This document shows, in pieces, positions 1 to 33,961 of a stretch of DNA of 33,961 bases; position 1 is the first letter of the stretch; every line of letters begins with the position of its first letter. Both the position numbers and the translations under genes were made by a program. The DNA is taken from IMG/VR virus record IMGVR_UViG_2636415959_000001, positions 1 through 33,961 of that record; one strand, written 5' to 3'. The notes beneath the pieces are model-generated. The model made no database searches and was not told where the DNA came from. It saw only the letters and a list, made by a program, of their open reading frames with translations. The stretch is from a virus. Taxonomy: Duplodnaviria; Heunggongvirae; Uroviricota; Caudoviricetes.

Positions 1-1314
1 TTAACTTACTGATTTTAATAATCCTCTACTGCTAGTTTGTGGTCTATGGGGCATCAATGGGGCAAAATCACCCAGCTTCTGATTCAGCATTGCGATCTGC
101 TCTGCGTTATTGTCTGCCATCCATGCGCCGTACACATTGAAAACCATTTGCGCACTAGCGTGCCCCATCTGACTGGCTATAAAGCTTGGATTGGCGCCAG
201 CGGCCAGTGACCAGCACGCGTAAGTGTGGCGCGACTGGTAAGCTTTTCGATGCCTGATCCCCGCCTTTTTTAACCCTGCGTCCCACGAGTCACCAAACGA
301 ATCAACCTTGTAGATAACCCCCACATCCTTACTTCGACGGACTATCTTAGGGTTAAAGACAAATGTACAGCTGTGCTGCGTTGTTCGACCATATTCACGC
401 AATTGCACGTTGATGTGATACTGCTGCCCGAGTCTAGTCATTTCCATCTGATTCCTTAACGCATCGATGGCTGGCTGAATGAGGTGTATCACTCTATCCG
501 TACTGGCGTCCGTTTTCGGTAGTGTGAACTCGCCCAGTTTTGTATAATTACGGCGAATTGTTATTGTACCCGCTTCAAGGTCTATATCTTCCCATGCCAG
601 GGAAACCAGTTCTCCGTGACGAACACCTGTGTACACCGCCAGTGACCACATGTTTTTCGTCTGCTGATGCCGGCACGCATCTATCAGACGGATGAATTCA
701 TCACGGCTGAGCGGATCTGGCTCCACCCTGGCCCTTTTTAATGGCTTTATTCCATCAAAGGGATTTGCCTTTATGTACCCATTATCGGCGGCGAACTGGA
801 ACATTCCGGCGATAGTCGTCATGTAGTAATTGACGGTGACCGCGCTCCGGCCCTTAACAGGGATCCTGCCCTTTGCCGCGCACTGATAACCCATCAAAAG
901 CTCTTTCCTGATGTACAGCAACTCTTCTTTCTCAATCGCTGTCACCAGTCGGGTAGCCCCGATCAGCGGTACAACAACTGCCACGACCGACTCGTACCGT
1001 TTGTGCGCGTTCGCGCTGATTTCCATCTTTTTCAGATCCAGCCACTTCTCTTCGAGTTCTTTCACTGTGATTTCTTTCTTGCCCAACCCAAAAATTTTAA
1101 GGTTAGGTGAATCTGGAAACCGTTCAGCATAATCAAAGCTTCCCGTGCGGATGGCAAAGCATACCGACACCCGCAGTTCCCCGGCGATCTTCCTGTTCTT
1201 AGCGGTGTCAGGGACACCGAGGTTTTCCCTGACGCGCTTACCTTTAAAATTAAACCAGATGCGCAGACTGCCACCGTGGTTTTCGACGCCTGTTGGATAT
1301 GTGATTTTATCCAT
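1..1314 (-). CDS. int: Tyrosine-type site-specific integrase (phage integrase)
   Basis: 437-aa ORF; C-terminal catalytic region with conserved R (..TGVRHGELVSL..), H-x-x-R (..RHTYACW..) and terminal Tyr region (..VFNVYGAWM..); N-terminal arm-binding-like domain; stop codon at window position 1-3. Confidence 0.9.
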   Translation of the reverse strand: MDKITYPTGVENHGGSLRIWFNFKGKRVRENLGVPDTAKNRKIAGELRVSVCFAIRTGSFDYAERFPDSPNLKIFGLGKKEITVKELEEKWLDLKKMEISANAHKRYESVVAVVVPLIGATRLVTAIEKEELLYIRKELLMGYQCAAKGRIPVKGRSAVTVNYYMTTIAGMFQFAADNGYIKANPFDGIKPLKRARVEPDPLSRDEFIRLIDACRHQQTKNMWSLAVYTGVRHGELVSLAWEDIDLEAGTITIRRNYTKLGEFTLPKTDASTDRVIHLIQPAIDALRNQMEMTRLGQQYHINVQLREYGRTTQHSCTFVFNPKIVRRSKDVGVIYKVDSFGDSWDAGLKKAGIRHRKAYQSRHTYACWSLAAGANPSFIASQMGHASAQMVFNVYGAWMADNNAEQIAMLNQKLGDFAPLMPHRPQTSSRGLLKSVS

Positions 1315-1369
1315 TAATACCTCCAGACGCCCAAGAGCGATACGAGCTTACCTTTTTCATGGCATCAAA

Positions 1370-1606
1370 TCATCCTGGCTGCTTGCTTTTCATTGAAGCG
1401 ACCCAGGCATCTACAGCCTTTCTGTTATACATGCACTCACTGGAAGGTTTTGGATTCCCGTCAGGTGATACGTGGATATACTCCCTCCCAACCATCCAGC
1501 ACTCTTTTCTGGCCCGGAGGATGGTACCGGGCTTGAGCCCGGTAACCGCGATAAGAACGCTTTCACAAACCCAATCGTTAGGAGCTAACTGAATAACATT
1601 GCTCAT
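1370..1606 (-). CDS. Excisionase-like DNA-binding protein
   Basis: 78-aa ORF immediately upstream of int, same strand; motif ..GLKPGTILRARKECWMVGREYIHVSPDG..PKPSSEC.. resembles the putative-excisionase family as I recall it; RBS GAGG upstream. Confidence 0.65.
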   Translation of the reverse strand: MSNVIQLAPNDWVCESVLIAVTGLKPGTILRARKECWMVGREYIHVSPDGNPKPSSECMYNRKAVDAWVASMKSKQPG

Positions 1607-1615
1607 ATACCCGCC

Positions 1616-1762
1616 TCACACCAAGTCAAGGCCACGGCAGTGGCGCCACACATCAAACATCCGCTTTACCACTTCCCTACAGTAAAAACCGTCGCAATCT
1701 CGCGTAAGGTCGTAACGGCTCCCGTACCGTTGGCGCACCCATATTTCAAATGCTTTGTGCAT
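1616..1762 (-). CDS. Small Cys/His-containing hypothetical protein (48 aa), below ORF-track size cutoff
   Basis: Hand translation MHKAFEIWVRQRYGSRYDLTRDCDGFYCREVVKRMFDVWRHCRGLDLV; its ATG overlaps the upstream gene stop (TAATG) and its stop lies just before the xis-like RBS, suggesting translational coupling. Confidence 0.35.
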   Translation of the reverse strand: MHKAFEIWVRQRYGSRYDLTRDCDGFYCREVVKRMFDVWRHCRGLDLV

Positions 1763-2073
1763 TACTTCACCTCTGCAGATAACGTCGTCACAATGACATG
1801 CTGGCGCGCCTTGGGTTTTATCAGAAAAATAGCCTTGTCATGCCTGAGCCCGTATCCACCTTCACGTTCGCAGCGTGCGACTGAGGCGCACAAAGAGCGG
1901 GGAATACCTTTCTTGCTGACATCAAATACCCAGGCGTTTTTGAGATCGAGGATCAGATTTCCTACATCGCCACCAATGCGTTCGATATAGCGTTCAATAG
2001 CGTGAACAGTCACCATGTAGTGGCGAAACTGCACACTTCCTGAGGCGGTCATTATTGGTGTAGTGGTGGTCAT
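1762..2073 (-). CDS. Hypothetical early protein (103 aa)
   Basis: ORF 1762-2109; preferred start MTTTTPIM at 2073 because it overlaps the upstream stop as TGATG. Confidence 0.5.
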   Translation of the reverse strand: MTTTTPIMTASGSVQFRHYMVTVHAIERYIERIGGDVGNLILDLKNAWVFDVSKKGIPRSLCASVARCEREGGYGLRHDKAIFLIKPKARQHVIVTTLSAEVK

Positions 2074-2534
2074 CACTTCACCTCCACGCCGATCCCGGCA
2101 ATGACACAAGCTCGCTCTATAGCTTCTTTCACCCAGCGCTTATAGGTTTCCGGATGGAATACTTCGCTTTTCCCGGTACCGCTCCAGAACGCTTTTGACG
2201 TAATATCTGGCAGGGTGATGGTCAACGGTTTACCAGAAGTGACATCGCTAACCACTCTCTCCCAGCGGTCGCCAGTCTGCGATTCAAGACGCTGAATTAA
2301 CTCCCCAATACTTAAAGGGGCGATCAACTGCTGGCGTAAGCGCTGAATCTCCGCCGCCATGTAGTAACCGGTTTTGCTCCAGGTATCTACATCATCACCG
2401 GCCATATCCGGTTCCATCGTCGCCATCAGAACGGCGTCGTGATAGTCCTGGCTGCCATTGGTGATCGCGACAGCGTAGGTATCACTGTTTTCGCGCTTAT
2501 GGATAAGCACGACAGGGTTAGTGATTTTGCTCAT
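2073..2534 (-). CDS. Hypothetical early protein (153 aa)
   Basis: ORF in the same leftward operon; overlapping stop/start with neighbours. Confidence 0.55.
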   Translation of the reverse strand: MSKITNPVVLIHKRENSDTYAVAITNGSQDYHDAVLMATMEPDMAGDDVDTWSKTGYYMAAEIQRLRQQLIAPLSIGELIQRLESQTGDRWERVVSDVTSGKPLTITLPDITSKAFWSGTGKSEVFHPETYKRWVKEAIERACVIAGIGVEVK

Positions 2535-2743
2535 TCCGCTGTCTCCCGCTCAGCTTCGATGATGGCATCTACAGCCATCACCAGGGTTTTGGCGAGGTCG
2601 TCGTAATCCTGCCATGCATCATTGCTAAAAAAATTCGTGAGCATTACTGGCGCTATCTGCACAACGAGGTGCTGGCGATAGGTCATGCCACGGGGAGTAT
2701 CGATGCGCGGGCATGGGTAAGCTGAATGCTGGCCTTTGCTCAT
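2531..2743 (-). CDS. Hypothetical early protein (70 aa)
   Basis: Small ORF with 4-nt overlaps to both neighbours (operon packing). Confidence 0.45.
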   Translation of the reverse strand: MSKGQHSAYPCPRIDTPRGMTYRQHLVVQIAPVMLTNFFSNDAWQDYDDLAKTLVMAVDAIIEAERETAE

Positions 2744-2964
2744 CGTGTCGCCTCTCGTTGAATTGTCTTGTAGGCTCGCAACATATCGCGAGATTTTCCG
2801 GACAAAACCGTCTTCATGAAGAACATTCCACTACGGTTTGCAACTATTCCTGGTGTGCAGAGCAGCGTGGCGTCTACCACGCGGTTATGTTTACGGAACT
2901 CAAACACAGTGCTGGTGATCACGATGTTCGCTACGGCGCCATAGTCCTGATATTCGATTTTCAT
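2740..2964 (-). CDS. Hypothetical early protein (74 aa)
   Basis: Small ORF with 4-nt overlaps to both neighbours. Confidence 0.45.
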   Translation of the reverse strand: MKIEYQDYGAVANIVITSTVFEFRKHNRVVDATLLCTPGIVANRSGMFFMKTVLSGKSRDMLRAYKTIQREATR

Positions 2965-3527
2965 GCCAGATGCTCCTCAATAATTTTGAAAGCATCATCA
3001 CGGCATGGCATCACGACGAACTCAGGATTACCGTATGCAGTGTTGATCACTGGATCGAACTGAATGCGAACCGCTCCAGCCTCACCGGAAGGGCGTAACT
3101 GGATGGGAATAAACTTCCGCTCGCGACCAAACATCTTTTCCGGATAACTGAGGTATTCAGCCCGGATAACCGGATTGATACTGAAATCCACTTTTTTCGG
3201 GATGACGCGTTCCATATCAGGAAAGCGACCATCAACAAGTTTGATGCCGGTGATCGAAATCCGGCGTTCGAATGCGTCGCGGTGAATGGCAAACGCTTCT
3301 TTGTTAAATACCAGTTCAGTGGTTTCCGCTTTCGCCGGAACCGGCCCTTCAAACTGGACGATGATGTTTTTCTTCGTCCGGATGCCGTGCTCCATGCGCA
3401 GGGCTACATGCCCGTTAGTCGACTCGATATATTTCGGAGTGATGTGCACACCATTCAGGTAGTAACGGACATCATTTTTTGCTGCGCATACCAGAGCTGC
3501 GCGAATAAGTTTCGACTGGAGGATCAT
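2961..3527 (-). CDS. Truncated DNA polymerase III beta sliding clamp (DnaN)-like protein
   Basis: 188 aa; motifs ..NDVRYYLNGVHI.., ..KLVDGRFPDMERVIPKK.. and C-terminal ..FVVMPCR.. parallel E. coli DnaN segments (..HQDVRYYLNGMLF.., ..KLVDGRFPDYRRVLPKN.., ..YVVMPMRL) as I recall them; covers roughly clamp domain II and part of III only. Confidence 0.6.
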   Translation of the reverse strand: MILQSKLIRAALVCAAKNDVRYYLNGVHITPKYIESTNGHVALRMEHGIRTKKNIIVQFEGPVPAKAETTELVFNKEAFAIHRDAFERRISITGIKLVDGRFPDMERVIPKKVDFSINPVIRAEYLSYPEKMFGRERKFIPIQLRPSGEAGAVRIQFDPVINTAYGNPEFVVMPCRDDAFKIIEEHLA

Positions 3528-4360
3528 GCTTCCACCTCCACGAAGATCTCTTTCGGATCCTTACGCAGAACGAAGCCACCAAATTCAGGATGTTGCCAGC
3601 GCTTGCGTTTACCGCTTGGGCGAACGGATTCTTCCAGCAGCACCTGAAATGCGTGAATGAACGATTCATGATGTACGCACAGCCCACGAACTCCCGGCAA
3701 CTGTCTGGAGGGCAGGTTTGCGAACTGAACAAGACGACGGCACGAAGGATCGGACAGACTGGTTTCCCATGACACTTTGTGTACCGGAACGAATTCGGCA
3801 TCGGTATTCACGAATTCAGTCGAACTAATGCGCCGTTGTGGTAGAGAGGAAGATACAGGCGAAGCAGCAACCAGGTTGGCGCCACTCACTTCCATTACTG
3901 CTTTCATCGTCGCTGATGCGGTTGCTTCGGCCACAACGCGGGCCAGTGAAAGAATGTCATGGTTCATGCTGATTTCTTGCTGGTGTGATTTAGCTACTGG
4001 CACTTCTTTGCTGTATGTGCCTGTGGTCATGATGGCAGGGAGTACATCCTCACAAACCCAGTCCTGTACGCGTTCAGCCGATGGAAGCTGGCTTCGCAGG
4101 ATAAGGCGGAACAAGTCGGCCTGACCAGCCAGCTGAGTACCGCGCGGTTTTTCACCAAAACCCAATTCTAACGATTCGTTATAATCAAGTTTAATCAACG
4201 CCTTGCAGTGGTCTTTCAGCGCTTTTGCTGGGTTCGTATAACCGAGGGATTTAGCCAGTTCTACAGCGTCAAAGGCTGGTTTTCCCTCATAAAGAATTCC
4301 GCTCATAGAAAAATTGAGTTCTTCTGAGCTAAAGGCCATAAGTTGGTTTTTCATCATCAT
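3524..4360 (-). CDS. BRO-N (KilA-N/Bro N-terminal) domain protein, antirepressor-like
   Basis: 278 aa; N-terminal ..FDAVELAKSLGYTNPAKALKDHC..LFRLILRSQLPSAERVQDWVCEDVLPAI.. fits the BRO-N pattern; C-terminal half unrecognised. Confidence 0.65.
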   Translation of the reverse strand: MMMKNQLMAFSSEELNFSMSGILYEGKPAFDAVELAKSLGYTNPAKALKDHCKALIKLDYNESLELGFGEKPRGTQLAGQADLFRLILRSQLPSAERVQDWVCEDVLPAIMTTGTYSKEVPVAKSHQQEISMNHDILSLARVVAEATASATMKAVMEVSGANLVAASPVSSSLPQRRISSTEFVNTDAEFVPVHKVSWETSLSDPSCRRLVQFANLPSRQLPGVRGLCVHHESFIHAFQVLLEESVRPSGKRKRWQHPEFGGFVLRKDPKEIFVEVEA

Positions 4361-4365
4361 TTACC

Positions 4366-4869
4366 TCAGTGCAAAATGTGTTGAACGGGTATTGCTTCGC
4401 CGACACGTAACCGAACAGCAAGATCCATAAACATCTCGTCGAGAAAACCGCTGAACCACGAATGACCGTCTTCTTTCAGGCGCTGATCGTTGGCGGAGTA
4501 GAACTGGAAGACAGCCAGATATCGCTCCTGTGGTTTTTGCTCGATCAGTGCGCCTTCTACGTGTTCAATAAGCAGGTTCTCGATAAGCTGCCGCGTTAAG
4601 CCAAAAACAAACTTACCGGTTTTAAACTGATACTCACCGTCACGGAGGCCCCAGCGTTTTTCACATTCAATCAGGTAGGTAAGGGCGACTGTTCCGCGCA
4701 TGTGCTTACAGATGATTTCAGCCCACTCGTGCTGCTCGGCAGCAGTTAGCTCGTGGTCTCCACTGCGTTTTTCATCCATCATCCATGCAGGGAAATTCAT
4801 ACCAGTCCTTTCATGGATATCTTTCAGCCTGGCGACAAGCTGCTTGATGTTTTCGTTATTTCCTGCCAT
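4366..4869 (-). CDS. Hypothetical protein (167 aa)
   Basis: ORF with plausible start; no recognised motif. Confidence 0.5.
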   Translation of the reverse strand: MAGNNENIKQLVARLKDIHERTGMNFPAWMMDEKRSGDHELTAAEQHEWAEIICKHMRGTVALTYLIECEKRWGLRDGEYQFKTGKFVFGLTRQLIENLLIEHVEGALIEQKPQERYLAVFQFYSANDQRLKEDGHSWFSGFLDEMFMDLAVRLRVGEAIPVQHILH

Positions 4870-4964
4870 CAGTTAATTCCTCCGCTGCATGTTTCTTTTT
4901 CACGTAATCAACAACCTCGCTCAGAAGTTCGTCGATAATTAATTTTCCTGAATCCGTCAGGTAT

Positions 4965-5222
4965 TCAGGTGTGTTTATTAATTTCTATGGCATTTTGATA
5001 TGCGTTTTTGATAGTGGAGTCACCCTCATATCTGCTAAGCCCAACCCCAGTTAATCCTTCAAAACGTAATAAAAGCTGATTCATGAAGTGATCATTTACT
5101 TCTACGGTTTCAATTTTGTTATCTGGAAGTTTTATAATCAGTAGGTTTCCACCGGTATTACGCTTGAGTCGCGCTAATGCCGCATTAGCAATCCGGCGTC
5201 GATAGGTATCGATAATATTCAT
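4965..5222 (-). CDS. Hypothetical small protein (85 aa), AT-rich gene
   Basis: ORF in the AT-rich island next to the repressor; basic N-terminus (..YRRRIANAALARLKRN..). Confidence 0.5.
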   Translation of the reverse strand: MNIIDTYRRRIANAALARLKRNTGGNLLIIKLPDNKIETVEVNDHFMNQLLLRFEGLTGVGLSRYEGDSTIKNAYQNAIEINKHT

Positions 5223-5328
5223 AGTTAGTACCCATAAGCTTTCTTAAGATAAAGAAGAGCGATTGCTTCGTAACCGCAGGACGCATAAAGGCATGCTGTT
5301 CTGTATGCCGTTTTATCTTTGATGAAAG

Positions 5329-5715
5329 TCATACGAAGCGCCTCACAGCTAAAGAAGCGACTACCCGACCATGAATTTTGATATCTTTCAGCTCATCGGT
5401 ATTGAGGGTGAAGGTTTCGTAATGATGGTTGTCCGAAATAATTTTCAATGAACCACAAACTAATGGCTCAACTCTCTTAATAAAAAGGCACGGACGGCCA
5501 AATACATCCATCGTATAAACATAAATGCCAGGGGTTAGCGTGCGGCCACCGCAATCAACGAAAGCCACAACCTCACATGGTTCGATGGTCGGCTGCATTG
5601 AGTCTCCCTCCATCATGCAGCTCTTAACACGGTTACCAAAGTCATTAATGTTGTCAGAGCCGAACAGCATTTGAGGTGTTTTAATTGGCTGATTAATTGC
5701 GATAGCGTTTTGCAT
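5329..5715 (-). CDS. Standalone S24 (LexA/CI/UmuD-type) peptidase-domain protein without HTH
   Basis: 128 aa; GDSMQP serine motif and downstream ..LFIKRVE.. lysine motif parallel the C-terminal domain of the adjacent CI (..GNSMEPVI.. / ..GWKRLKI..); no N-terminal DNA-binding domain; RBS GAGGAA 7 nt upstream. Confidence 0.6.
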   Translation of the reverse strand: MQNAIAINQPIKTPQMLFGSDNINDFGNRVKSCMMEGDSMQPTIEPCEVVAFVDCGGRTLTPGIYVYTMDVFGRPCLFIKRVEPLVCGSLKIISDNHHYETFTLNTDELKDIKIHGRVVASLAVRRFV

Positions 5716-5788
5716 TTTAATTTCCTCAGGGTGAGTTTATCCCCACGCAAAAAGGTGTTATTTATGATTAAATGTGTTAATTAGTTAG

Positions 5789-6082
5789 TTAAATAGCAGA
5801 GAACATTTTTTTAATGTCAGGATGGTCATCTATGATTTTTTTAGCATCATCACATGCTTCTTCATATGACTTGAAGAAATCAACCAGAACAAAATAATTA
5901 TCTACACGTTCGTAGATAGCGAATTCCAAACCATCAATAAAAGTGGTGTTAAATTCGTAATCAAAATCATTCTGATGAGGCTGTGCAGCTCGTAAATAAA
6001 TCCAGTGTGAATTTGCTGCTTTAAGCTTGGCGTGGATATCAAATGCCTGGCTCGCTGGGTTTGGTTGGGAGGTTGTATTCAT
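5789..6082 (-). CDS. Hypothetical protein (97 aa), first gene leftward of the repressor
   Basis: ORF in AT-rich context downstream of the cI terminator and the OL-like palindromes. Confidence 0.5.
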   Translation of the reverse strand: MNTTSQPNPASQAFDIHAKLKAANSHWIYLRAAQPHQNDFDYEFNTTFIDGLEFAIYERVDNYFVLVDFFKSYEEACDDAKKIIDDHPDIKKMFSAI

Positions 6083-6109
6083 CTCGTTGGCTCCGTTGTT
6101 TGCCGATGA

Positions 6110-6160
6110 AATGAGAATACTTAAGTATTAATTGAAGGTCAATGGTATTAATACAAAAAG
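6110..6160. promoter_or_regulatory. Putative left operator/promoter (OL/PL-like) with TAATAC/GTATTA palindromes
   Basis: Perfect palindrome AATACTTAAGTATT (6116-6129) and GTATTAATAC (6145-6154); the same half-site recurs in the cI-cro intergenic region. Confidence 0.4.
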
Positions 6161-6203
6161 AATAATAGATTTCTTATGTATTTGTTATTGAAGATTATTT
6201 TAG

Positions 6204-6244
6204 TAATAAAAAAGCCGACACTATGGTCGGCTTGGTGCTTTTTT
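6204..6244 (-). terminator. Intrinsic terminator downstream of cI
   Basis: Stem GCCGAC / GTCGGC (6214-6219 / 6226-6231), 6-nt loop, followed on the minus strand by a T-run. Confidence 0.55.
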
Positions 6245-6253
6245 GGTAGCGGA

Positions 6254-6946
6254 TCAGAAGATTGTTGATACCCAAAACAGCCTTCCTAAAACCTCAAGAC
6301 TATCCATGTCTACTTCTTCGTCAGGGTATTCATCAGAGTTATAGCTTCTGATTGTCACCTTGTCTGGCCCAGATCTGTAGAGGATTTTTAACCTTTTCCA
6401 TCCACCTTGGTTGATGCCGTAAATTTTACCATCAACGATACGCTTGTCATGGCAGTTTATAGCAACAGTAGAGCCATCAGCGATCACTGGCTCCATGCTA
6501 TTCCCGTGTGCAGCAAAGCATAGAACGCCATCACCATCACTATTAGCTCCCACCTTTCGCAATGTTGCTTTGGAAAACCTAAGTTTTTTGCCATTGTAAT
6601 CATCATTAAGAGCGCTGCCATCTCCACATGCGAACTCGATATCCTTCAAGTAAGGCACCTCTACCTCATCATCCTCAAGCGGCGTTTGCTTATCCCATGG
6701 ATCTATACCAAACATCCTTTGTTCTGGAGTTTTTGCGGGCCCCATGGTGCCTTCACCAGTGCTTAACCATATTGGATCTACATCCAACGCTTTGGCTATA
6801 TCCACGATTTTTCCGCTGGACTGGGCTTTTCCTGAGGTTAGTTTTTGTATGGCCCCCTGGCTTACCCCAACCCTATGCGCTAATTGACTTTGTGTAGCCC
6901 CGGCATGAGCCATCGCCAGCCTTAGTCTTTCTGCAAGTGTGTTCAT
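6254..6946 (-). CDS. cI: CI-like phage repressor (HTH + S24 peptidase)
   Basis: 230 aa; N-terminal HTH (..QSQLAHRVGVSQGAIQKLTSGK..); C-terminal autocleavage domain (GNSMEP, KRLK); divergent from the cro-like gene. Confidence 0.9.
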   Translation of the reverse strand: MNTLAERLRLAMAHAGATQSQLAHRVGVSQGAIQKLTSGKAQSSGKIVDIAKALDVDPIWLSTGEGTMGPAKTPEQRMFGIDPWDKQTPLEDDEVEVPYLKDIEFACGDGSALNDDYNGKKLRFSKATLRKVGANSDGDGVLCFAAHGNSMEPVIADGSTVAINCHDKRIVDGKIYGINQGGWKRLKILYRSGPDKVTIRSYNSDEYPDEEVDMDSLEVLGRLFWVSTIF

Positions 6947-7072
6947 CTAAGTATCTCCGATTTCTGTGCATATTTAATACCACAGGATTAACCATGGCAA
7001 GCGGATAATACTTGATTAATTATTCCTTTGGTATTATTTTATATCTTTAATATTAATACTAAGGGCTTTGTT
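6947..7072. promoter_or_regulatory. Immunity switch region (OR / PRM / PR-like) between cI and cro
   Basis: 126-bp AT-rich divergent intergenic region with repeated TAATAC / GTATTA half-sites (e.g. 6975-6980, 7007-7012, 7032-7036, 7054-7059). Confidence 0.5.
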
Positions 7073-7315
7073 ATGACTGATGAGGTTTTTGAATCCCCAA
7101 TGGCGAAAGCCGTGTACGTTGCTGGTGGGCAAAGTTCGCTTGCTAAAAAGGTTGGCGTTACGCAAGGAGCGGTCTGGAAGTGGGTCAGGGGGGTCAAGAA
7201 AGTTTCTCCTGTCCATGCAGTAGCAGTCTCAAACGCAGTTAATGGAGTTGTTAAGCCTCATGAACTGCGTCCTGATTTGCCGACTCTTTTCCCACACCCG
7301 GGCAATGAGGTGTGA
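7073..7315 (+). CDS. cro: Cro-like HTH regulator
   Basis: 80 aa from ATG 7073; HTH ..SSLAKKVGVTQGAVWKWVRG..; divergent from cI. Confidence 0.7.
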   Translation: MTDEVFESPMAKAVYVAGGQSSLAKKVGVTQGAVWKWVRGVKKVSPVHAVAVSNAVNGVVKPHELRPDLPTLFPHPGNEV

Positions 7316-7316
7316 T

Positions 7317-7514
7317 ATGTCGCACTCAATCACTACCGAAAACCAAATTAAGCCATTGGATATCGATTATCGCGATCCGCGCGGTGTGATTGTGCATGTC
7401 ACCGGCTGGAATCGGGATAAGCAGCAGGTGTATTTCACCAGGCAGAATTATCCGCATGAGTGCATGCAACCGGTCTGGAAGTTTCAACAGTATTTCAAGA
7501 GGTTAACATCATGA
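7317..7514 (+). CDS. Hypothetical protein (65 aa) between cro and the replication gene
   Basis: ORF starting MSHSITTENQ at 7317; occupies the cII-equivalent position but shows no obvious HTH. Confidence 0.4.
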   Translation: MSHSITTENQIKPLDIDYRDPRGVIVHVTGWNRDKQQVYFTRQNYPHECMQPVWKFQQYFKRLTS

Positions 7515-8434
7515 GCAGCAAACTACAGGGCTATGTCTGGGATGCCTGCGCTGTTTCTGGTGTCAAGGGGACGCGGCTAATGGTTATGGTACGCCTGGCT
7601 GATTATTCCAGTGATGATGGGAAAAGCTATCCTGGCATAAAAACCATTGCCCGCCAACTTGGCGCGGGGGAGAGCACCATACGAACAGCCATTGCTGAAC
7701 TTGAATCAGAGAAATGGCTTCGACGTGAGAATCGCCGGAATGGTAACCGCAATACATCAAATATGTACTTTTTGAATGTCGAAAAACTTGAAGAAATTGC
7801 ACTTCGGGAGAGATCTGCTATTCGTCTGGATCGACGCAAAAACAACCATTTTGACCCGTCAGATTCTGACGTATCGGATTCTGACAAGTCAGATTTTGAC
7901 GCGTCAGAAATGAGTGACTCAAGTGCACTTGACCCGTCAGATTCTGGCAAAAACAACCATTTTGACCCGTCAGATTCTGGGGGACATGATCCACAAGGTT
8001 TAAAACATGATCCACAAGTAAAAGATCATGAACCACAAGAAGTGCGCGCAAAGCGCCAGAAAAAATCTTCTTTCGACCCTGCATGGCTAAAACCTGAAAA
8101 CGTCAGCGCTGAAATCTGGCTGGACTGGATTAAATTTCGCCGGGAGAAGCGTCAACCGCTGACGGAAACAACCTGCGCATACCAGGCTAAGCAGCTTGCA
8201 GGCCATCAGAATGCCGATGAAGTGATCCGACGCTCAATTGCTGGAGGCTGGCAGGGATTGTTCCCGGATCGTGTGCCCAACAAGCCCGCAATGTCACTAG
8301 CTGAAAACGAAACGCTGACCGCAAGTCAACCGCCAGCTGGGTCATGGTGCACACCATCTGGAGATGGAACAGCGGAGGTATTTATCAACCAGGCCGCTAT
8401 CGAGCGCATGAAGCGCGGGAGTTATCGCCCATGA
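7511..8434 (+). CDS. Replication initiation protein (lambda O-like role) with internal iteron-encoded repeats
   Basis: 307 aa from ATG 7511; N-terminal winged-helix-like region; central low-complexity KNNHFDPSDSD repeats encoded by DNA iterons; conserved C-terminal region. Confidence 0.65.
   Translation: MSSKLQGYVWDACAVSGVKGTRLMVMVRLADYSSDDGKSYPGIKTIARQLGAGESTIRTAIAELESEKWLRRENRRNGNRNTSNMYFLNVEKLEEIALRERSAIRLDRRKNNHFDPSDSDVSDSDKSDFDASEMSDSSALDPSDSGKNNHFDPSDSGGHDPQGLKHDPQVKDHEPQEVRAKRQKKSSFDPAWLKPENVSAEIWLDWIKFRREKRQPLTETTCAYQAKQLAGHQNADEVIRRSIAGGWQGLFPDRVPNKPAMSLAENETLTASQPPAGSWCTPSGDGTAEVFINQAAIERMKRGSYRP
7836..8040. repeat. Iteron array (putative replication origin) inside the replication initiator gene
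   Basis: 33-bp direct repeat GCAAAAACAACCATTTTGACCCGTCAGATTCTG at 7836-7868 and 7947-7979; further ~15-bp GTCAGATTCTGAC-like units; CATGATCCACAAG repeats at 7985-8040. Confidence 0.65.
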
Positions 8435-10412: not shown

Positions 10413-10414
10413 GC

Positions 10415-25960: not shown

Positions 25961-25986
25961 ACCTTACATTAATTTATGTCTTTCAT

Positions 25987-26008
25987 GCCCACTTCGGTGG
26001 GCTTTTTT
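25987..26008 (+). terminator. Intrinsic terminator after the moron gene
   Basis: GCCCAC-TTCG-GTGGGC hairpin followed by TTTTTT. Confidence 0.65.
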
Positions 26009-26023
26009 ATATCCGGAGTTTAT

Positions 26024-27352
26024 ATGACGTGGAAAGACAGGCTTCAGGACGCGTCATTTCGCGGTGTGCCGTTTAAGGTTGAAGAAGAAAGTGCGGGAAC
26101 AGGTCGCCGTGTGGAAACACACGAATATCCGAACCGCGACAAACCCTATACCGAAGATCTGGGAAAAGTCACTTTCCGCCCGTCCATCACGGCTTATGTG
26201 GTGGGCGATGACTGCTTTGACCAGCGCGATCGCCTGATTGACGCGCTGAATAAACCCGGTCCCGGCACGCTTGTCCACCCGACTTACGGTGAGCTGAAAG
26301 TCTGTGTTGACGGAGAGGTTCGGGTCAGCACATCGAAAAGTGAAGGGCGTATTGTCCGCTTTGACCTGAAGTTTGTCGAAGCGGGAGAACTCTCTTACCC
26401 CACATCAGGTGCGGCGACGGCGCAGACGCTGATGTCATCCTGTTCTGCACTGGATGACTGCATCAGTGACAGCTTCAGCGGTTTCAGTATCGATGGTGTG
26501 GCGGATTTCGTGCAGAACGACGTTATCGGTAATGCCAGCATAATGCTGGGGTATGTTTCTGATGCGATGAAAGTGGTGGATTCTGCCGTATCGGATGCCG
26601 CCAGGCTGTTGCAGGGGGATATCTCGGTACTTCTGCCGCCGCCATCGTCAGGCAAAAATTTCGTTGAGCAGGTGCAGAAAATGTGGCGTACCGGGAAACG
26701 CCTTTATGGTAACGCCAGCGACCTGGTCACCATGATCAAAACGCTTTCCGGTGTCAGCCTCGGCAGCGATCTGCAACCGCGCGGCGTCTGGAAAACGGAC
26801 AGTAAAACCACCGCCACGGCGACGCAGCAGCGTAACGTGGTTGCCAGTACCCTTCGTACGACCGCAATCAGCGAAGCGGCGTATGCCGTCACCCAATTGC
26901 CTGCGCCAACAACTTCCGCGGTGATGCAGAATTCCTCAGTGGGGCAGGCTACAACACCTGCGCAGAGCACTGGCTGGCCTTCCGTCACGCATCCGGCACT
27001 GAACAATGCACCGGCGGTGAAAAACACGGTTGACCTGCCGACGTGGGAAGAACTGACTGACATTCGCGACACACTGAATACGGCAATTGATAAGGAGTTG
27101 TCCCGTACAACCAGTGATGCGCTGTTTCTGGCGCTGCGCCGGGTGAAAGCAGATCTGAATGCGGATATCAACACGCGCCTTGAACAGTCTGCACGGATCA
27201 TTCAGCGCACACCGGATGAGGTTTTACCCGCGCTGGTGCTGGCGGCGACCTGGTTTGATAACGCGGCGCGTGACGCGGACATTATCCGGCGTAATGCCAT
27301 TACGCATCCCGGCTTTGTGCCGGTGATCCCTCTGAAGGTGCCAGTGCAATGA
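26024..27352 (+). CDS. DNA circularization protein (Mu N-like)
   Basis: 442 aa from ATG 26024 (RBS GGAG); N-terminal MTWKDRLQDASFRGVPFKVEEE.. typical of Mu N-like proteins as recalled; position after tape measure. Confidence 0.7.
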   Translation: MTWKDRLQDASFRGVPFKVEEESAGTGRRVETHEYPNRDKPYTEDLGKVTFRPSITAYVVGDDCFDQRDRLIDALNKPGPGTLVHPTYGELKVCVDGEVRVSTSKSEGRIVRFDLKFVEAGELSYPTSGAATAQTLMSSCSALDDCISDSFSGFSIDGVADFVQNDVIGNASIMLGYVSDAMKVVDSAVSDAARLLQGDISVLLPPPSSGKNFVEQVQKMWRTGKRLYGNASDLVTMIKTLSGVSLGSDLQPRGVWKTDSKTTATATQQRNVVASTLRTTAISEAAYAVTQLPAPTTSAVMQNSSVGQATTPAQSTGWPSVTHPALNNAPAVKNTVDLPTWEELTDIRDTLNTAIDKELSRTTSDALFLALRRVKADLNADINTRLEQSARIIQRTPDEVLPALVLAATWFDNAARDADIIRRNAITHPGFVPVIPLKVPVQ

Positions 27353-28428
27353 ACGACAATGTCACGCTACGGGTAAATGGCCGGGAGTGGAATGGCTGGA
27401 CATCGGTGCGCATCGGTGCCGGTATTGAACGGCTGGCGCGGGATTTCAGTGTGGAGATCACCCGCCAGTGGCCGGGAGATGAGGGTATTACCACGCTTCA
27501 GTCGCGCATTAAAAACGGTTCAAAAGTGGAGGTGCTGATTGGTGATGAGCTGGTGATCACCGGCTGGGTGGAGGCGACGCCCGTTCGTTACGATGCCCGT
27601 TCGGTCAGCACCGGTATTGCCGGACGCAGTCTGACCGCTGACCTGATTGACTGTGCAGCCGAACCGACACAGTTTAACGGACGATCGCTGGTACAGATTG
27701 CGCAGGCGCTTGCTGCGCCTTTCGGCATTGAGGTGGTGAACAGCGGTGCGCCGTCGGGTGTTATTCCTGATGTTCAGCCTGATCACGGTGAAACGGTGAT
27801 TGAGGTAATCAACAAAATACTCGGTCAGCAGCAGGCACTGGCTTACGACGACCCGCACGGCAGGCTGGTGATTGGCGGTATTGGCTCAACGCGGGCACAT
27901 ACTGCGCTGGTACTCGGGGAAAACATCCTTTCCTGCGATACGGAGAAGAGTATCCGGGAGCGATTTTCTGTTTACCAGGTGGCGGGGCAGCGTGCCGGAA
28001 ACGACGATGATTTCGGTGAGGCCACCACCACCGCGCTGCGGGCCCGCACAGAGGACGCATTTATTGCCCGTTACCGTCCGATGTATATCAGGCAGACAGG
28101 GCAGGCTACGGGGGCAGGCTGTATTGCGCGTGCTGACTTTGAAGCCCGGCAACGGGCGGCGCGGACGGATGAAACCACCTATGTGGTGCAGGGCTGGCGA
28201 CAGGGTAACGGTACGCTGTGGCAGCCCAACCAGCGGGTGATTGTCTTTGATCCGGTCTGTGGTTTCGACAATACCGAACTGCTTGTTTCGGAAGTCACGT
28301 TTACTCAGGACCAGAACGGCACCCTGACGGAAATCCGTGTCGGCCCGCCTGATGCTTATCTGCCTGAACCCGAAGCCCCCGGCGCGCGGAAAAAGAAAAA
28401 AGCCAGAGTACAGGAGGACCCGTTCTGA
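27349..28428 (+). CDS. Baseplate hub / tail protein (Mu P/gp44-like)
   Basis: 359 aa; position in the Mu-type baseplate series; 4-nt overlap with the upstream gene. Confidence 0.7.
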   Translation: MNDNVTLRVNGREWNGWTSVRIGAGIERLARDFSVEITRQWPGDEGITTLQSRIKNGSKVEVLIGDELVITGWVEATPVRYDARSVSTGIAGRSLTADLIDCAAEPTQFNGRSLVQIAQALAAPFGIEVVNSGAPSGVIPDVQPDHGETVIEVINKILGQQQALAYDDPHGRLVIGGIGSTRAHTALVLGENILSCDTEKSIRERFSVYQVAGQRAGNDDDFGEATTTALRARTEDAFIARYRPMYIRQTGQATGAGCIARADFEARQRAARTDETTYVVQGWRQGNGTLWQPNQRVIVFDPVCGFDNTELLVSEVTFTQDQNGTLTEIRVGPPDAYLPEPEAPGARKKKKARVQEDPF

Positions 28429-28976
28429 TGAGGACGATTGAAGCCATGCAGCGACAACTCCTCGGCCTGATTGGGCGGGCAGTGGTGAAAAGCATCAGTG
28501 CCGCCACGAAATGTCAGACCGTGGATGTGTCCCTGATTGCCGGTGAACCCAAAGCCGGGATTGAACATCTTGAGCCCTACGGTTTTACCGCAAGGGCAAA
28601 CAGCGGTGCGGAAGCGGTGGTGTTGTTTCCGGATGGCGACCGTTCTCATGCGGTGGTTGTTACGGTGTCGGACCGGCGCTACCGCCTGAAAGGGCTGCAG
28701 ACGGGTGAGGTGGCTGTCTATGACGATCAGGGGCAGTCTGTGACGCTGACCCGGGAGGGGATCGTGGTGGACGGTGCAGGTAAAACGATCACGTTTCGCA
28801 ATGCGCCTAAGGCACGTTTTGAAATGGACCTGGAAGTGACAGGACAGGTGAAAGACCTGTGCGACTCCGGCGGCACCACCATGTCAGCGATGCGGCTTGC
28901 CTATAACGGGCATCGTCACAGAGAGAACGGTCAGGGCAGTAACACCGACAAACCGGATAAAGCGATGGAGGCATGA
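28428..28976 (+). CDS. Baseplate assembly/spike protein (Mu gp45-like, V-type)
   Basis: 182 aa; position and size. Confidence 0.65.
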   Translation: MRTIEAMQRQLLGLIGRAVVKSISAATKCQTVDVSLIAGEPKAGIEHLEPYGFTARANSGAEAVVLFPDGDRSHAVVVTVSDRRYRLKGLQTGEVAVYDDQGQSVTLTREGIVVDGAGKTITFRNAPKARFEMDLEVTGQVKDLCDSGGTTMSAMRLAYNGHRHRENGQGSNTDKPDKAMEA

Positions 28977-29401
28977 TGGAACTGTGGCTGACGGTGAACG
29001 GTAAACGCACCTGCGCCAGCGCACCGCTGGATCCGCTGACCCGCGCTGTGGTGATTTCCCTGTTTACCTGGCGGCGGGCGGAGCCTGATGACAACGCCGA
29101 CGTCCCGATGGGATGGTGGGGGGATACCTGGCCTGCGGTACAGAATGACCGTTACGGCTCCCGACTGTGGCTGCTTCAGCGCAGCAAACTGACCAATCAG
29201 CTGGTGCAGACGGTAAGGGGGTATATCCGCGAATGCCTGCAATGGATGATTGATGACGGCGTGGTGTCCCGTATTGATCTGGATATCCGCCGTACCGGGA
29301 TTAATGAACTGGGTAACAGTATCACTCTCTGGCGTCGTGACGGACCGGTAATGATTTCTTTTGATGATCTGTGGAGTGCGATAACGCATGGCGGACAGTG
29401 A
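28973..29401 (+). CDS. Baseplate protein (Mu gp46-like, W/gp25 family)
   Basis: 142 aa; position. Confidence 0.6.
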   Translation: MMELWLTVNGKRTCASAPLDPLTRAVVISLFTWRRAEPDDNADVPMGWWGDTWPAVQNDRYGSRLWLLQRSKLTNQLVQTVRGYIRECLQWMIDDGVVSRIDLDIRRTGINELGNSITLWRRDGPVMISFDDLWSAITHGGQ

Positions 29402-30446
29402 ATTTCAGCGCCCGACGCTGGCAGAAAATATCAGTATGCTCCGTAACGATTTATTCGCCAGGCTGGACGTCAGCGACACGCTCCGGCGCATGGATGAAGA
29501 CGTGCGGGCAAAGGTGTATGCGGCGGCGCTGCATACGGTCTACGGTTACATCGATTATCTGGCAATGAACATGCTGCCTGACCTGTGCGATGAGTCCTGG
29601 CTGGCGCGACATGCTGCGATGAAACGGTGTCCGCGCAAGGGGGCCACGGCTGCCAGCGGGTATATGCGCTGGGAAGGTGTCAGCGATGGCCTGAAGGTGA
29701 CCGCCGGGAGTGTTATTCAGCGCGATGACCTGGTGCAGTACACGGCAACTGCCGATGCAACCAGCTCCGGTGGTGTCCTGCGCGTGCCGATCGCCTGCTC
29801 AAGTGCAGGCGCGGTCGGTAACGCTGACGACGGTACGTCATTAATCCTGGTCACGCCGGTGAATGGTCTGCCGTCTTCCGGCGTGGCAGATACACTGACA
29901 GGTGGATTTGATACTGAAGAGCTGGAAACGTGGCGCGCCCGCGTCATTGAGCGGTATTACTGGACGCCGCAGGGCGGGGCTGACGGGGACTATGTCGTCT
30001 GGGCTAAAGAAGTGCCCGGCATTACCCGCGCATGGACATACCGACACTGGATGGGAACGGGGACTGTCGGTGTGATGATTGCCAGCAGCGACCTGATTAA
30101 TCCCATTCCGGAAGAATCAACGGAAACGGCGGCAAGGCTGCATATCGAGCCACTGGCCCCGGTGGCAGGCTCTGATTTGTATGTGTTCAGGCCGGTGGCA
30201 CATACGGTGGATTTTCATATCCGTGTGACGCCGGACACACCGGAAATACGGGCTGCCATCACCGCGGAGTTGCGTTCGTTCCTGCTGCGTGATGGTTATC
30301 CGCAGGGAGAACTGAAGGTGTCACGTATCAGTGAAGCGATTTCCGGTGCGAACGGGGAATACAGCCATCAGTTGCTTGCACCGGCGGACAATATCTCCAT
30401 TGCAAAAAATGAACTGGCGGTACTGGGGACGATTTCATGGACGTGA
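29388..30446 (+). CDS. Baseplate J-like protein (Mu gp47-like)
   Basis: 352 aa; position and size. Confidence 0.75.
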
Positions 30447-31021
30447 CAAACGATGATTACATCCGTCTGTTGTCGGCACTGCTGCCGCCCGGTCCGGCGT
30501 GGTCAGCCAGAGATCCGGCGATTGCCGGTACGGCACCGTCATTAACCCGTGTTCATCAGCGTGCGGATGCCCTGATGCGGGAGCTGGATCCGCGCACCAC
30601 CACCGAACTGATAAACCGCTGGGAGCGTCTGTGCGGCCTGCCGGATGAATGTATTCCTACAGGGACACAGACCCTTCGCCAGCGCCAGCAACGGCTGGAT
30701 GCGAAGGTTAACCTGTCGGGTGGCATCAACGAGGATTTTTATCTTGCACAGCTTGCTGCCCTGGGCAGACCAGATGCCACCATCACGCGATACGACAAAA
30801 GCACGTTCACCTGCTCATCGGCCTGTACTGACGCGGTGAATGCGCCGGAATGGCGGTATTACTGGCAGGTCAACATGCCAGCCGCCACCAACACCACCTG
30901 GATGACATGTGGCGATCCCTGTGATTCCGCACTGCGTATCTGGGGCGACACCGTTGTCGAGTGTGTGCTTAACAAACTCTGCCCGTCGCATACCTACGTA
31001 ATTTTTAAATATCCGGAGTAA
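30437..31021 (+). CDS. Tail protein (Mu gp48-like)
   Basis: 194 aa; position before the tail fibre gene. Confidence 0.6.
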
Positions 31022-31024
31022 TCC

Positions 31025-31825
31025 ATGCATCGTATAGACACGAAAACCGCGCAGAAGGATAAGTTCGGCGCGGGTAAGAACGGTTTTACCCGTGGTAATC
31101 CCCAGACTGGTACGCCTGCCACCGATCTGGATGATGACTACTTTGACATGTTGCAGGAGGAGCTTTGCAGCGTTGTGGAGGCATCCGGTGCCAGCCTGGA
31201 GAAGGGGCGGCATGACCAGTTGCTTACCGCACTTCGCGCACTGCTGTTAAGCCGCAATAATCCGTTTGGTGATATCAAATCGGACGGCACTGTGCAAACG
31301 GCTCTCGAAAACCTTGGTTTGGGAGAAGGTTCAGCATTACCGGTTGGTGTGCCTGTTCCGTGGCCTTCAGCTACACCACCGACAGGCTGGTTGAAATGCA
31401 ATGGTGCAGCTTTTTCTGCTGAAGAATACCCGGAACTGGCAAAGGCTTACCCGACAAATAAATTGCCTGATTTACGCGGTGAGTTTATTCGTGGCTGGGA
31501 TGATGGACGCGGTGTGGATACGGGGAGGGCAATATTATCATCTCAGGGCGATGCCATACGTAATATCTATGGTGAGTTCAAGACTGTAAACGCCGAAAAT
31601 TATTCAATATGGGAATCAGTAGACTCTTTTAAGGGGGCAGTGGTGCCTTTGAACCCCTCAACGGACAATAGTTATTTCTCCATAATCAATAGTATGTTGA
31701 CACAAAGAACAGATGGCTCTGTTTACCCAACAGTGATTGGCCTTGATGCTTCAAGAATTGTTCCAACTGCAAACGAAAACCGTCCACGAAATATTGCATT
31801 TAACTTTATCGTGAGGGCTGCATAA
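31025..31825 (+). CDS. Tail fibre protein with tail-collar domain
   Basis: 266 aa; ..[49 protein letters not shown].. fits the phage tail-collar motif; C-terminal part AT-rich. Confidence 0.75.
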
Positions 31826-32427
31826 TGGATAACGCTGTATTAAATAGCGAGCTTATTGCCACGAAGGCGGGGAATATTACCGTCTATAGCTATGATGGTG
31901 AAACTCGGGAATATATTTCCACTTCAAATGAATATCTTGCCGTTGGCGTCGGTATCCCGGCATGTTCTTGTTTAGATGCACCAGTTACACATAAAGCTGG
32001 TTATGCAATCTGCCGTTCTGCAGATTTTAACTCATGGGAATATGTGCCAGACCATCGCGGTGAAATCATCTATAGCACCGAAACAGGAGAATCGAAAGAA
32101 ATCACAGCTCTGGGTGATTACCCTGAAAATACAACCACTATCGCCCCGTTAATGCCATATGATAAATGGGATGGTGAGAAATGGGTGACAGATACTGAGG
32201 CACAGCATAGTGCCGCAGTAGACGCGGCAGAAGCACAGCGCCAGTCACTGATTGATGCAGCAATGGCTTCCATTAGTCTGATTCAGCTGAAATTACAGGC
32301 CGGACGTAAACTGACGCAGGCAGAAACAACCAGACTTAACGCCGTGCTGGATTACATTGACGCGGTGACGGCAACAGATACCAGCACCGCGCCGGATGTC
32401 ATCTGGCCTGAACTGCCGGAGGCGTAG
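31825..32427 (+). CDS. Tail fibre assembly protein (Tfa)
   Basis: 200 aa directly after the tail fibre (ATGA overlap); typical Tfa composition. Confidence 0.7.
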   Translation: MDNAVLNSELIATKAGNITVYSYDGETREYISTSNEYLAVGVGIPACSCLDAPVTHKAGYAICRSADFNSWEYVPDHRGEIIYSTETGESKEITALGDYPENTTTIAPLMPYDKWDGEKWVTDTEAQHSAAVDAAEAQRQSLIDAAMASISLIQLKLQAGRKLTQAETTRLNAVLDYIDAVTATDTSTAPDVIWPELPEA

Positions 32428-32818
32428 GCCATTCAATATCGAGTGCTGTTGAAGTATTAATACGCATCAATAGCACTCGATATTCTTTCCATGCCAGTAA
32501 CAGTTTCGTTTCATCATCTGTTGCCATACCTAAATCAACCGCATCCTGAAGCGGAGCTATTACATTCGTTGCCTCTGCTATCAGTGCAGATTTCTTTTCA
32601 TCATTTATTAAGGCTAATTGTTCTGGTGTTGGAGAAGGACGGTCAACAATGACAGGATGACCGTTCTCACCACAGGTAATCATTTTTGTTACACTCTGTG
32701 CATTAATCAGTGTTTTCCACTCTGATTCCGAGATTTCCACTGCATCATCAGGAATATTGGTGCCGTGAAATTCAGTCGAATAAAATCCGTTTGTCGATGC
32801 AGAATAAAAATATGACAT
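32399..32818 (-). CDS. Tail fibre assembly protein, second copy in inverted orientation
   Basis: 139 aa from ATG 32818 (MSYFYSASTNGFYSTEF.., a typical Tfa N-terminus); convergent with the plus-strand Tfa. Confidence 0.65.
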   Translation of the reverse strand: MSYFYSASTNGFYSTEFHGTNIPDDAVEISESEWKTLINAQSVTKMITCGENGHPVIVDRPSPTPEQLALINDEKKSALIAEATNVIAPLQDAVDLGMATDDETKLLLAWKEYRVLLMRINTSTALDIEWPTPPAVQAR

Positions 32819-32822
32819 TTCG

Positions 32823-33221
32823 TTAATATCCCATTGCAATGTAATACGCATCAGCAGATGAACCATATCCTGAACCGGGCGACACTGTAATATTAAATCC
32901 AGTGTTCTGGACATTTGTCGCCGATACAGTCGGCTGCCCTGACGCGCCAGTAACGTTCAATGTAACTGTGACAGCAAGGACTCTTGAGAATGTCATCGGG
33001 AACCTTATCTCGTATGTTGAAGAAACATTCGGGGAGCCATTCAACTGACCGCACTGTAAAATTAAACCAGACGGAAATTTTTGCGCAGCAGCCGTTGCGG
33101 TATTACTTGACGCGAACAGGCTCATATCAGGTATCTGATTCGCCCCTGTACCTACATTCCTTTTAGCTGCTTCTCCCAAACCAACGTTTACGAAAATAAA
33201 AATCCGCCACAGCGTAATCAA
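32823..33221 (-). other. Inverted tail-fibre C-terminal (receptor-binding-like) coding segment lacking its own N-terminal part
   Basis: Minus-strand ORF ending 4 nt before the inverted Tfa; track start is a non-ATG codon inside the dinI terminator; first in-frame ATG at 33125 has no clear RBS. Confidence 0.45.
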
Positions 33222-33240
33222 AACGTAACAGTGGCGGATA
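33191..33240 (-). terminator. Intrinsic terminator downstream of the dinI-like gene
   Basis: ATCCGCCAC / GTGGCGGAT stem (33202-33210 / 33231-33239), large loop, followed on the minus strand by TTTTTATTTT. Confidence 0.5.
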
Positions 33241-33250
33241 TTGAAAAACT

Positions 33251-33493
33251 TTACTCACTCACTAACCAAAATTCAGCCTCTTCAAACATTTCCTGGACTA
33301 CTGCACTGATCCGTTCCTTCTCGTGCTTGCTGGCGTCAGTGTTGATCGCCGGTAGTGTCATCATCGGTTTAACCCGAACATCAGCGTCAGGGAAAATCCG
33401 GTGAACCCTCTTGGTCAATTCGCCCAGAATGATATCTTTTGCACCGGGAAGACCATCAAAATTCCTTTTGTCATAAACGAGTTCCACGAACAT
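33251..33493 (-). CDS. dinI: DinI-family protein
   Basis: 80 aa; ..FPDADVRV.. and acidic C-terminus ..EEAEFWLVSE parallel E. coli DinI (..DDWFVSE) as recalled; LexA box in its promoter. Confidence 0.8.
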   Translation of the reverse strand: MFVELVYDKRNFDGLPGAKDIILGELTKRVHRIFPDADVRVKPMMTLPAINTDASKHEKERISAVVQEMFEEAEFWLVSE

Positions 33494-33508
33494 TGCTCAT
33501 TGCCTCTT

Positions 33509-33528
33509 TGCTGGATGGATATACAGTA
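33509..33528. promoter_or_regulatory. LexA (SOS) box in the divergent dinI-like / umuD'-like promoter region
   Basis: Minus-strand reading TACTGTATATCCATCCAGCA (CTGT-N8-CCAG), very close to the E. coli dinI box as I recall it; lies between -35 TTGCTG and -10 TATACT (plus strand) and directly downstream of -10 TATAAA (minus strand). Confidence 0.6.
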
Positions 33529-33571
33529 TTTATACTGTGTTTTTATCCGGTATTCAAGAGAGGGCGTAAAC

Positions 33572-33961
33572 ATGGGCTTTCCTTCACCTGCTGCAGATTA
33601 TGTTGAAACACGAATCTCCCTCGATCAGCAGTTAATCAGCCAGCCCGCAGCGACTTATTTCATGCGTGCATCGCGTTCACATTTCAGGGAAGGGATAATT
33701 CAGGGGGCGCTGCTTGTTGTTGATGCCTCACTTTCAGCCTGTGATGGCTCGCTGCTGATCTGCGCGATAGACGGAGAATTTAGGATCAAGCGATATCGGA
33801 CACATCCTCAACCCCACCTCGTTAATCTGGAGAACGGGAGAAAGGAGGCGCTGCCAGTAGATGATGGCGGTTACAGTTCTGCACCCGCTGTATTTGGGGT
33901 GCTTACTTACATCATCAATGACGCCAGGAATGCAGAGTTTGATGATTGCCCGGTGATGTGA
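33572..33961 (+). CDS. UmuD'-like protein (S24-family fold, N-terminally pre-truncated, catalytic Ser not conserved)
   Basis: 129 aa from ATG 33572 (RBS GAGAGGG); starts MGFPSPAADYVE.., aligning to E. coli UmuD from Gly25 (..CGFPSPAADYVEQ..); GDSM position reads RSHF; Lys of ..EFRIKR.. retained; stop is the last codon of the window. Confidence 0.75.
   Translation: MGFPSPAADYVETRISLDQQLISQPAATYFMRASRSHFREGIIQGALLVVDASLSACDGSLLICAIDGEFRIKRYRTHPQPHLVNLENGRKEALPVDDGGYSSAPAVFGVLTYIINDARNAEFDDCPVM

Follow-up and report, generated by a model that had tools for sequence, protein, structure and literature searches.

Attachment cores just beyond both ends of a gene-bounded window place an apparently complete temperate prophage in yecE of Escherichia coli

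The stretch of DNA analyzed here (hereafter designated the window; 33,961 nucleotides (nt), positions 1 to 33,961 of the IMG/VR record IMGVR_UViG_2636415959_000001, assigned to the Caudoviricetes) covers most of a putative prophage, and is bounded on both sides by protein-coding genes. At the left end, the first three bases are TTA, the reverse complement of TAA, and terminate an open reading frame (ORF) of 437 amino acids (aa) on the minus strand (1–1314), which was identified as a tyrosine integrase gene (int) by matches to the Pfam models Arm-DNA-bind_2 (PF12167, 82.6 bits) and Phage_integrase (PF00589, 61.2 bits). A second minus-strand gene (1370–1606) encodes a 78-aa excisionase (xis) of the DUF1233 family (PF06806, 111.6 bits). 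At the right end, the last ORF runs on the plus strand from an ATG at 33572 to a TGA at 33959–33961, the final three bases of the window, and encodes a 129-aa protein matching Peptidase_S24 and the NCBIfam HumD equivalog model NF051876. The initial annotation had located both terminal stop codons correctly, that of int at 1–3 and that of a umuD'-like gene at the right end, and the label "umuD'-like" was accurate as judged from the HumD model and an alignment with UmuD'. Since both ends of the window are stop codons, it was evidently cut on gene coordinates, so that attachment (att) sites lying beyond the terminal genes were excluded by construction.

The flanking sequences were taken from public contigs found by exact-protein matching. 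On the right, contig JPKI01000002.1 of assembly GCA_000768425.1 (hereafter L019) is 100% identical to window positions 21025–33961 and extends 7.8 kilobases (kb) farther rightward; by the same matching, the tail-fibre protein encoded at 31025–31825 was found on this contig alone. On the left, a 10.9-kb contig (hereafter L022) is 100% identical to window positions 1–7865 and extends 3 kb leftward, and it was also picked out by exact matches of a 167-aa and an 85-aa window protein. The integrase and a 103-aa protein were widespread in such matching, and the window-specific 85-aa protein occurred on two contigs only, namely L022 and another, longer than 1 Mb, that is assumed to be the source contig of the window. 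L022 was used as a proxy for the window's own left flank, the neighboring genes of the other contig being taken to be alike. Among complete E. coli genomes, the whole left end was present in no record, the best matches showing 97.6% identity over 74% of the query and 87.5% identity over 97%.

In these flanks, an 11-bp direct repeat, CACGCAGTTAA, was found at both junctions with all 11 bases identical, and constitutes the att core. The attL core occupies the 29th to 19th bases to the left of window base 1 in L022, with 18 nt separating it from the int stop codon, and the attR core lies in L019 at window-equivalent positions 34464–34474, that is, 503–513 nt beyond the right end. The left junction reads ...GTGTTGCCCTC, the core, CATGACGGGCGTTAGGGG, and then window base 1, and the right junction reads ...AAAATGCCCGCGT, the core, and then AGTGGCGGGCATACTC... 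When 23 prophage loci bearing this int were compared, the host side varied as far as the core, with three or more distinct sequences, and the phage side, catgacgggcgttaggggttaacttactg, was nearly constant after it. Counting both cores, the element measures 34,503 bp (34,492 bp as a phage genome), of which the window makes up about 98.5%; outside it lie, to the left, one core plus 18 nt of phage DNA and, to the right, 502 nt, comprising a ynaM-like ORF and the candidate P arm described below, followed by the other core. The initial annotation had placed the prophage boundaries outside the window and had advised extending both sides in search of direct repeats; the attL/attR pair in the flanks is such a repeat. 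Its view that the element is longer than the window also stands, although the excess, cores included, is very small: 29 nt at the left end and 513 nt at the right.

In an alternative arrangement, the att repeats or true ends would lie inside the window and the terminal genes would be host DNA or DNA of another element; att repeats inside the window, with host genes immediately adjacent, had been named by the initial annotation as what would overturn its view. The first and last 2 kb of the window do share direct words, the longest being a 15-mer common to 1245–1259 and 33057–33071. This 15-mer, however, shows no extension, has an expectation value (E) of 0.01 even in a comparison of 2 kb by 1.5 kb, and sits within the int coding region and an alternative fibre ORF. 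Moreover, neither strand of the window contains the core CACGCAGTTAA, and deleting everything between the outer cores restores the host gene yecE exactly. The chance that the ends lie inside the window is consequently close to nil in our estimate.

Indeed, joining the host flanks at one core gave a 1000-nt attB with an intact yecE-yecD, which in the best E. coli genomes was matched in one piece, with 100% coverage and 99.9% identity, over the annotated yecE and yecD. The host is assigned to this species on the strength of the 99.9% identity between the flanks and E. coli genomes. The insertion point falls in codons 29–32 of yecE (F-N-C-V); the attR side keeps a 36-codon yecE stub adjoining yecD, and the remainder of the gene is found at attL, annotated as either 241 or 257 aa. 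These annotations differ because the attL part has no canonical in-frame start ahead of the GTG at codon 32: the 241-aa version starts at this GTG, and the 257-aa version uses a non-canonical start and overlaps the 3' end of int by 22 nt. It was also observed that the phage side of attL (L022 7866–7900 plus window 1–22) mimics yecE codons 27–31, reading N-A-R-H-V-N-C-V versus the native Y-A-R-H-F-N-C-V. The initial annotation had anticipated an att site overlapping a tRNA gene or the 3' end of a host gene; the target is instead near the 5' end of yecE. A tRNA-linked att site was rejected, as ARAGORN detected no tRNA gene in the window and the flanks are yecE. At least 80% of the reconstructed attB was matched in 4901 of 5426 complete E. 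coli genomes. The other 525 (about 10%) gave no yecE-yecD match running uninterrupted through the att core, which suggests that the site is frequently occupied or rearranged. The gene is a published insertion site of Stx phages (PMC8065619, citing Recktenwald & Schmidt 2002; PMC9751135).

The right flank in L019 proceeds from a ynaM-like ORF of 38 codons (window-equivalent 34009–34125, minus strand) through attR and the 36-codon yecE stub to yecD, aspS, nudB, yebC, ruvC, and ruvAB. In a search of E. coli genomes with the right junction, the empty-site genomes (19 of the 25 rows listed) matched from query position 1241, which corresponds to L019 position 13440, the first base of the core. The same search revealed this dinI-humD-ynaM-attR-yecD right junction in 22 genomes. 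These flanks bear directly on whether the element reaches well beyond the window, with umuC and more cargo on the right or a tRNA-linked att site farther to the left. Such an extension was the lead given by the initial annotation and would accord with general knowledge, in that UmuD homologues usually occur in umuDC-type operons and tRNA genes are the targets of many prophages. Nevertheless, within the 7.8 kb on the right, only the ynaM-like ORF precedes attR and is then followed by host genes; in the listed empty-site genomes, host homology sets in at the core, 503 nt beyond the right edge; on the left, yecE sequence begins 19 nt from the window; and P1 HumD and the homologues of N15, phiKO2, and HK639 are annotated without umuC under the match. 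A far-reaching extension is already refuted by the flanks, and we leave it scarcely any probability. The umuC-like gene that the initial annotation had proposed to look for was not found in the 7.8-kb right flank of L019, where the HumD-family gene stands alone. HumD is a pre-cleaved UmuD' analogue that works with the UmuC of the host, and umuC is therefore not expected in the element.

The attP site reconstructed from the two junctions (P arm, core, P' arm, and int stop) has an uninterrupted counterpart in the phage CharmingMan genome, with 78% identity and 10 of the 11 core bases. On either side of the core in attP lie the halves of an imperfect inverted repeat, GCCCGCGTCA ... TGACGGGCGT, which are candidate core-type sites. 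Beyond the right end of the window, a candidate P arm contains five direct TGGGRCA(T/A) repeats, at 34288, 34299, 34319, 34329, and 34340 (span 34288–34346), and a candidate P' arm at 44–66 (plus strand), inside the 3' coding end of int, contains two direct TGGGGCA(T/A) repeats at 47–53 and 58–64 with an 11-nt spacing. Both P' repeats, and all but one of the five in the P arm, retain their sequence and position in CharmingMan and in phage phiP27 (NC_003356/AJ298298; record positions 76 and 87 correspond to window 47 and 58), and the spacers diverge. Across 44.8 kb, the motif was matched 17 times, and 7 of these matches, all in the same orientation, fall in the two arm clusters. The statement in the initial annotation that the attachment site next to int is not in view therefore holds for the core and probably fails for the P' arm, candidate sites of which lie within the window.

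From these features, a route of integration may be proposed. A phiP27-type tyrosine integrase would insert the phage into codons 29–32 of yecE by recombination within the 11-bp core common to phage attP and host attB, and the prophage is consequently bracketed by direct copies of the core, attL on the left and attR on the right. The integrase probably binds the arm-type repeats TGGGRCAW, with five candidates in the P arm (four of them conserved in relatives) and two P' candidates in the 3' end of int, to assemble a presumably lambda-like intasome, and the P' arm of attL would then be partly visible in the window. The assignment of these repeats as integrase-binding sites is drawn from motif, position, and conservation, together with the arm-binding domain of the integrase.

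The cargo at the right end consists of two divergent genes separated by a 78-nt spacer: a dinI-like gene on the minus strand (33251–33493; 80 aa; Pfam DinI, PF06183, 67.1 bits) and the humD-like gene on the plus strand (33572–33961). Between the stop codon of the latter and the attR core there are 502 nt, occupied only by the ynaM-like mini-gene and the P arm, which bears out the expectation in the initial annotation that SOS cargo lies just inside the prophage end. The arrangement is not that of a umuDC-type polymerase V operon, as dinI is upstream on the opposite strand and no umuC follows downstream. The HumD-like protein matched NF051876.1 with 219.6 bits (cut-off, 120) over positions 1–129 of 129, and, in alignment with known structures, its second residue falls on the first residue of UmuD' (1UMU), equivalent to position 25 of full-length UmuD (8GMT). 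As read from this alignment, the predicted protein is without the cleavable N-terminal tail of UmuD and begins at the UmuD' N-terminus, at the position of UmuD Gly25, so that cleavage would not be required. By our own residue counting on the UmuD' alignment, residue ~36 of the HumD-like protein is a His at the position of the catalytic Ser60 of UmuD, and residue ~73 retains Lys97; this pattern is consistent with a pre-processed protein that no longer needs self-cleavage.

In some annotations, the same gene is given as a 148-aa S24 protein starting from an upstream ATG at 33515. This longer form was not preferred, since the 129-aa form matches the HumD model end to end; in our reading, the 129-aa start is preceded by a GAGG-type ribosome-binding site and the upstream ATG is not. 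The upstream ATG is overlapped by a LexA-box-like 20-mer, TACTGTATATCCATCCAGCA (33509–33528, minus strand), which includes a CTG-N10-CAG match at 33511–33526 and agrees at 16 of 20 positions with what we take to be the E. coli LexA consensus. A scan of the right end for promoters and terminators returned nothing, including no promoter-like site scored in the dinI/humD spacer. Judging by the box, the dinI/humD cargo may be controlled by LexA, and P1 humD has been described as LexA-regulated (PMC9603915).

Next to this cargo, the tail-fibre genes (31025–33221, on both strands; Collar and Caudo_TAP Pfam matches) have the layout of an invertible segment. Two 24-nt crossover-like sites (TCGAAAACCTTGGTTTGGGAGAAG), inverted relative to each other and 92% complementary, lie at 31305–31328 and 33170–33193 and enclose two opposed tail-fibre-assembly (Caudo_TAP) genes and the alternative fibre C-end ORF (32823–33221, minus strand). 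In the listed top matches, where E. coli genomes have e14-type fibre regions, the homology breaks off at window positions 33187–33203, at or near the right-hand site. No serine invertase or resolvase gene was found between 33193 and attR or elsewhere in the prophage, and relatives at another locus do carry a serine invertase gene.

As a separate observation, at least eight E. coli contigs (L011–L018, at ~10000–11420; core of L011 at 10893) contain an identical humD, the 502 nt, the attR core, and the 36-codon yecE stub, followed by only the last 78 codons of yecD. This block resides at a different chromosomal locus adjoining yciI-tonB-yciABC-ompW-trp, and two features lie downstream of it: a second, homologous copy of window 33123–33189, which contains the crossover site, and a gene for a 182-aa resolvase/invertase (serine invertase). 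In two of these contigs (L014 and L015), which also carry the dinI side, the first copy of the crossover region is on the other side of the block. It is conceivable, although we hold it to be doubtful, that the dinI-humD-ynaM-attR block is a mobile prophage end carrying host DNA, and that it represents a fossil yecE junction moved by recombination at invertase sites or by aberrant excision.

Between the terminal regions, the remaining modules of a temperate phage are arranged in succession. A 230-aa CI-type repressor gene lies at 6254–6946 on the minus strand (HTH_3 and Peptidase_S24 in the precomputed Pfam annotation of the identical gene in L022, at 920–1612), and the modules that follow up to the fibres are on the plus strand: a replication module encoding an HTH_36 initiator-like protein and a Toprim/AAA_25 primase-helicase (7460–10412; Pfam); a Q-type antiterminator gene (10734–11357; Pfam Antiterm, 192.6 bits; phrog_127); a lysis cassette of holin, endolysin, and Rz/Rz1-like spanins (11790–13106; Pfam Phage_holin_3_1, with endolysin and spanins from PHROGs); genes for an HNH endonuclease, TerS, TerL, portal, head protease, major capsid, and head-tail connectors (13133–21137; Pfam and PHROGs), about 97% identical at the nucleotide level to those of SfII, SfI, and SfV; and a contractile tail module of sheath, tube, chaperone, tape measure, DNA-circulation protein, and Mu gp44-48-like baseplate (21300–31021), recognized from the precomputed Pfam annotation in L019 and similarity to SfII and SfV. 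In addition, a 128-aa ORF on the minus strand (5329–5715) has a weak Peptidase_S24 match in the precomputed annotation of identical or related copies (L010, L020–L022, and L027); alongside the CI repressor and HumD, its product would be a second small protein of S24-like type. The temperate-phage gene set is thereby complete, with int, xis, cI, replication, Q, lysis, packaging, head, tail, and fibres.

This inventory is relevant to whether the element is a decayed remnant incapable of excision, with boundaries that are mere historical scars, as might be suspected from an invertible tail-fibre segment that has no invertase gene. Against such decay, both cores are intact (11 of 11 bases), neither int nor xis is truncated and their domains score above threshold, every module is present with no disrupted ORF noticed, and the sequenced phages SfII, SfI, and SfV have structural genes sharing about 97% identity with those of the element. 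We therefore consider a remnant improbable, if less so than either of the two displaced-boundary arrangements weighed above.

Three points weigh against this account: the left flank comes from L022, another sample, and not from the assembly that gave L019; integrase binding to the TGGGRCA repeats, LexA control of the cargo, and competence to excise are inferences; and CTG-N10-CAG is not rare in the window, with 16 matches versus 8 expected. Collectively, it may nonetheless be concluded with high confidence that the window covers, from terminal gene to terminal gene, a single apparently complete temperate myovirus prophage integrated in yecE of E. coli, whose ends are at the two cores. The anatomy of the window is settled accordingly, in that it holds all of a single prophage of known type save the att cores, one mini-gene, and the P arm, and what is hidden outside it includes neither umuC nor further cargo. 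More generally, att sites get lost from windows cut by gene coordinates, and they could here be placed to the base because public flanks and the phiP27 record were used.

Compared with known systems, the element is of an ordinary, known kind, which combines an SfV/SfII-like myovirus body with a phiP27-type int/att module. It provides a further case in which yecE is targeted by a prophage and in which a solo HumD/DinI SOS module is located at the end of one. In phiP27, a Stx2e phage, the same 11 bases are annotated as attL (1–11) and attR (42565–42575), the gap between the core and the int stop is likewise 18 nt, a 437-aa int is followed by a DUF1233 xis as here, and TGGGRCA repeats occur in both arms at the same positions. 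The two phages differ in other respects: identity over int-xis is only about 78% at the nucleotide level, phiP27 was not among the top matches listed by megablast for the rest of the window, stx genes were not noticed among the window genes scanned, and the right end of phiP27 consists of tail-fibre genes and a small hypothetical ORF in place of dinI and humD. Conversely, SfII, SfI, SfIV, SfV, and vB_EcoM-689R6 share the packaging, head, and contractile tail genes with 97–98% nucleotide identity over 56–79% of window 10000–33961, whereas these phages showed no match to the early region or int of the window. The early region here is a different mosaic, and the int/att module is phiP27-type and targets yecE.

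As for the accessory genes, the tail-fibre segment shares crossover sites and opposed fibre/assembly genes with the Gin/Cin/Pin-type systems but lacks their adjacent serine invertase gene; in e14 and P1, pin or cin occupies the position where this prophage has dinI and humD. P1 HumD, which is reportedly a functional UmuD' homologue (McLenigan et al. 1999, as cited in PMC4713147), is 72.1% identical to the window protein over 129 of 129 residues, and both are solo genes without umuC, as are the HumD homologues of N15, phiKO2, and HK639. In P1, humD is located on a plasmid-prophage next to phd-doc, whereas the gene here belongs to an integrated SfV-like prophage, lies at its attR end, and is divergent from a dinI-like gene. 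Finally, the attP of this element resembles the lambda type in having an integrase with an N-terminal arm-binding domain, a short core between imperfect inverted repeats, and clustered repeats in both arms, and differs from it in the sequence and number of the repeats, of which there would be four or five candidates in the P arm and two in the P' arm, the latter overlapping the coding end of int.

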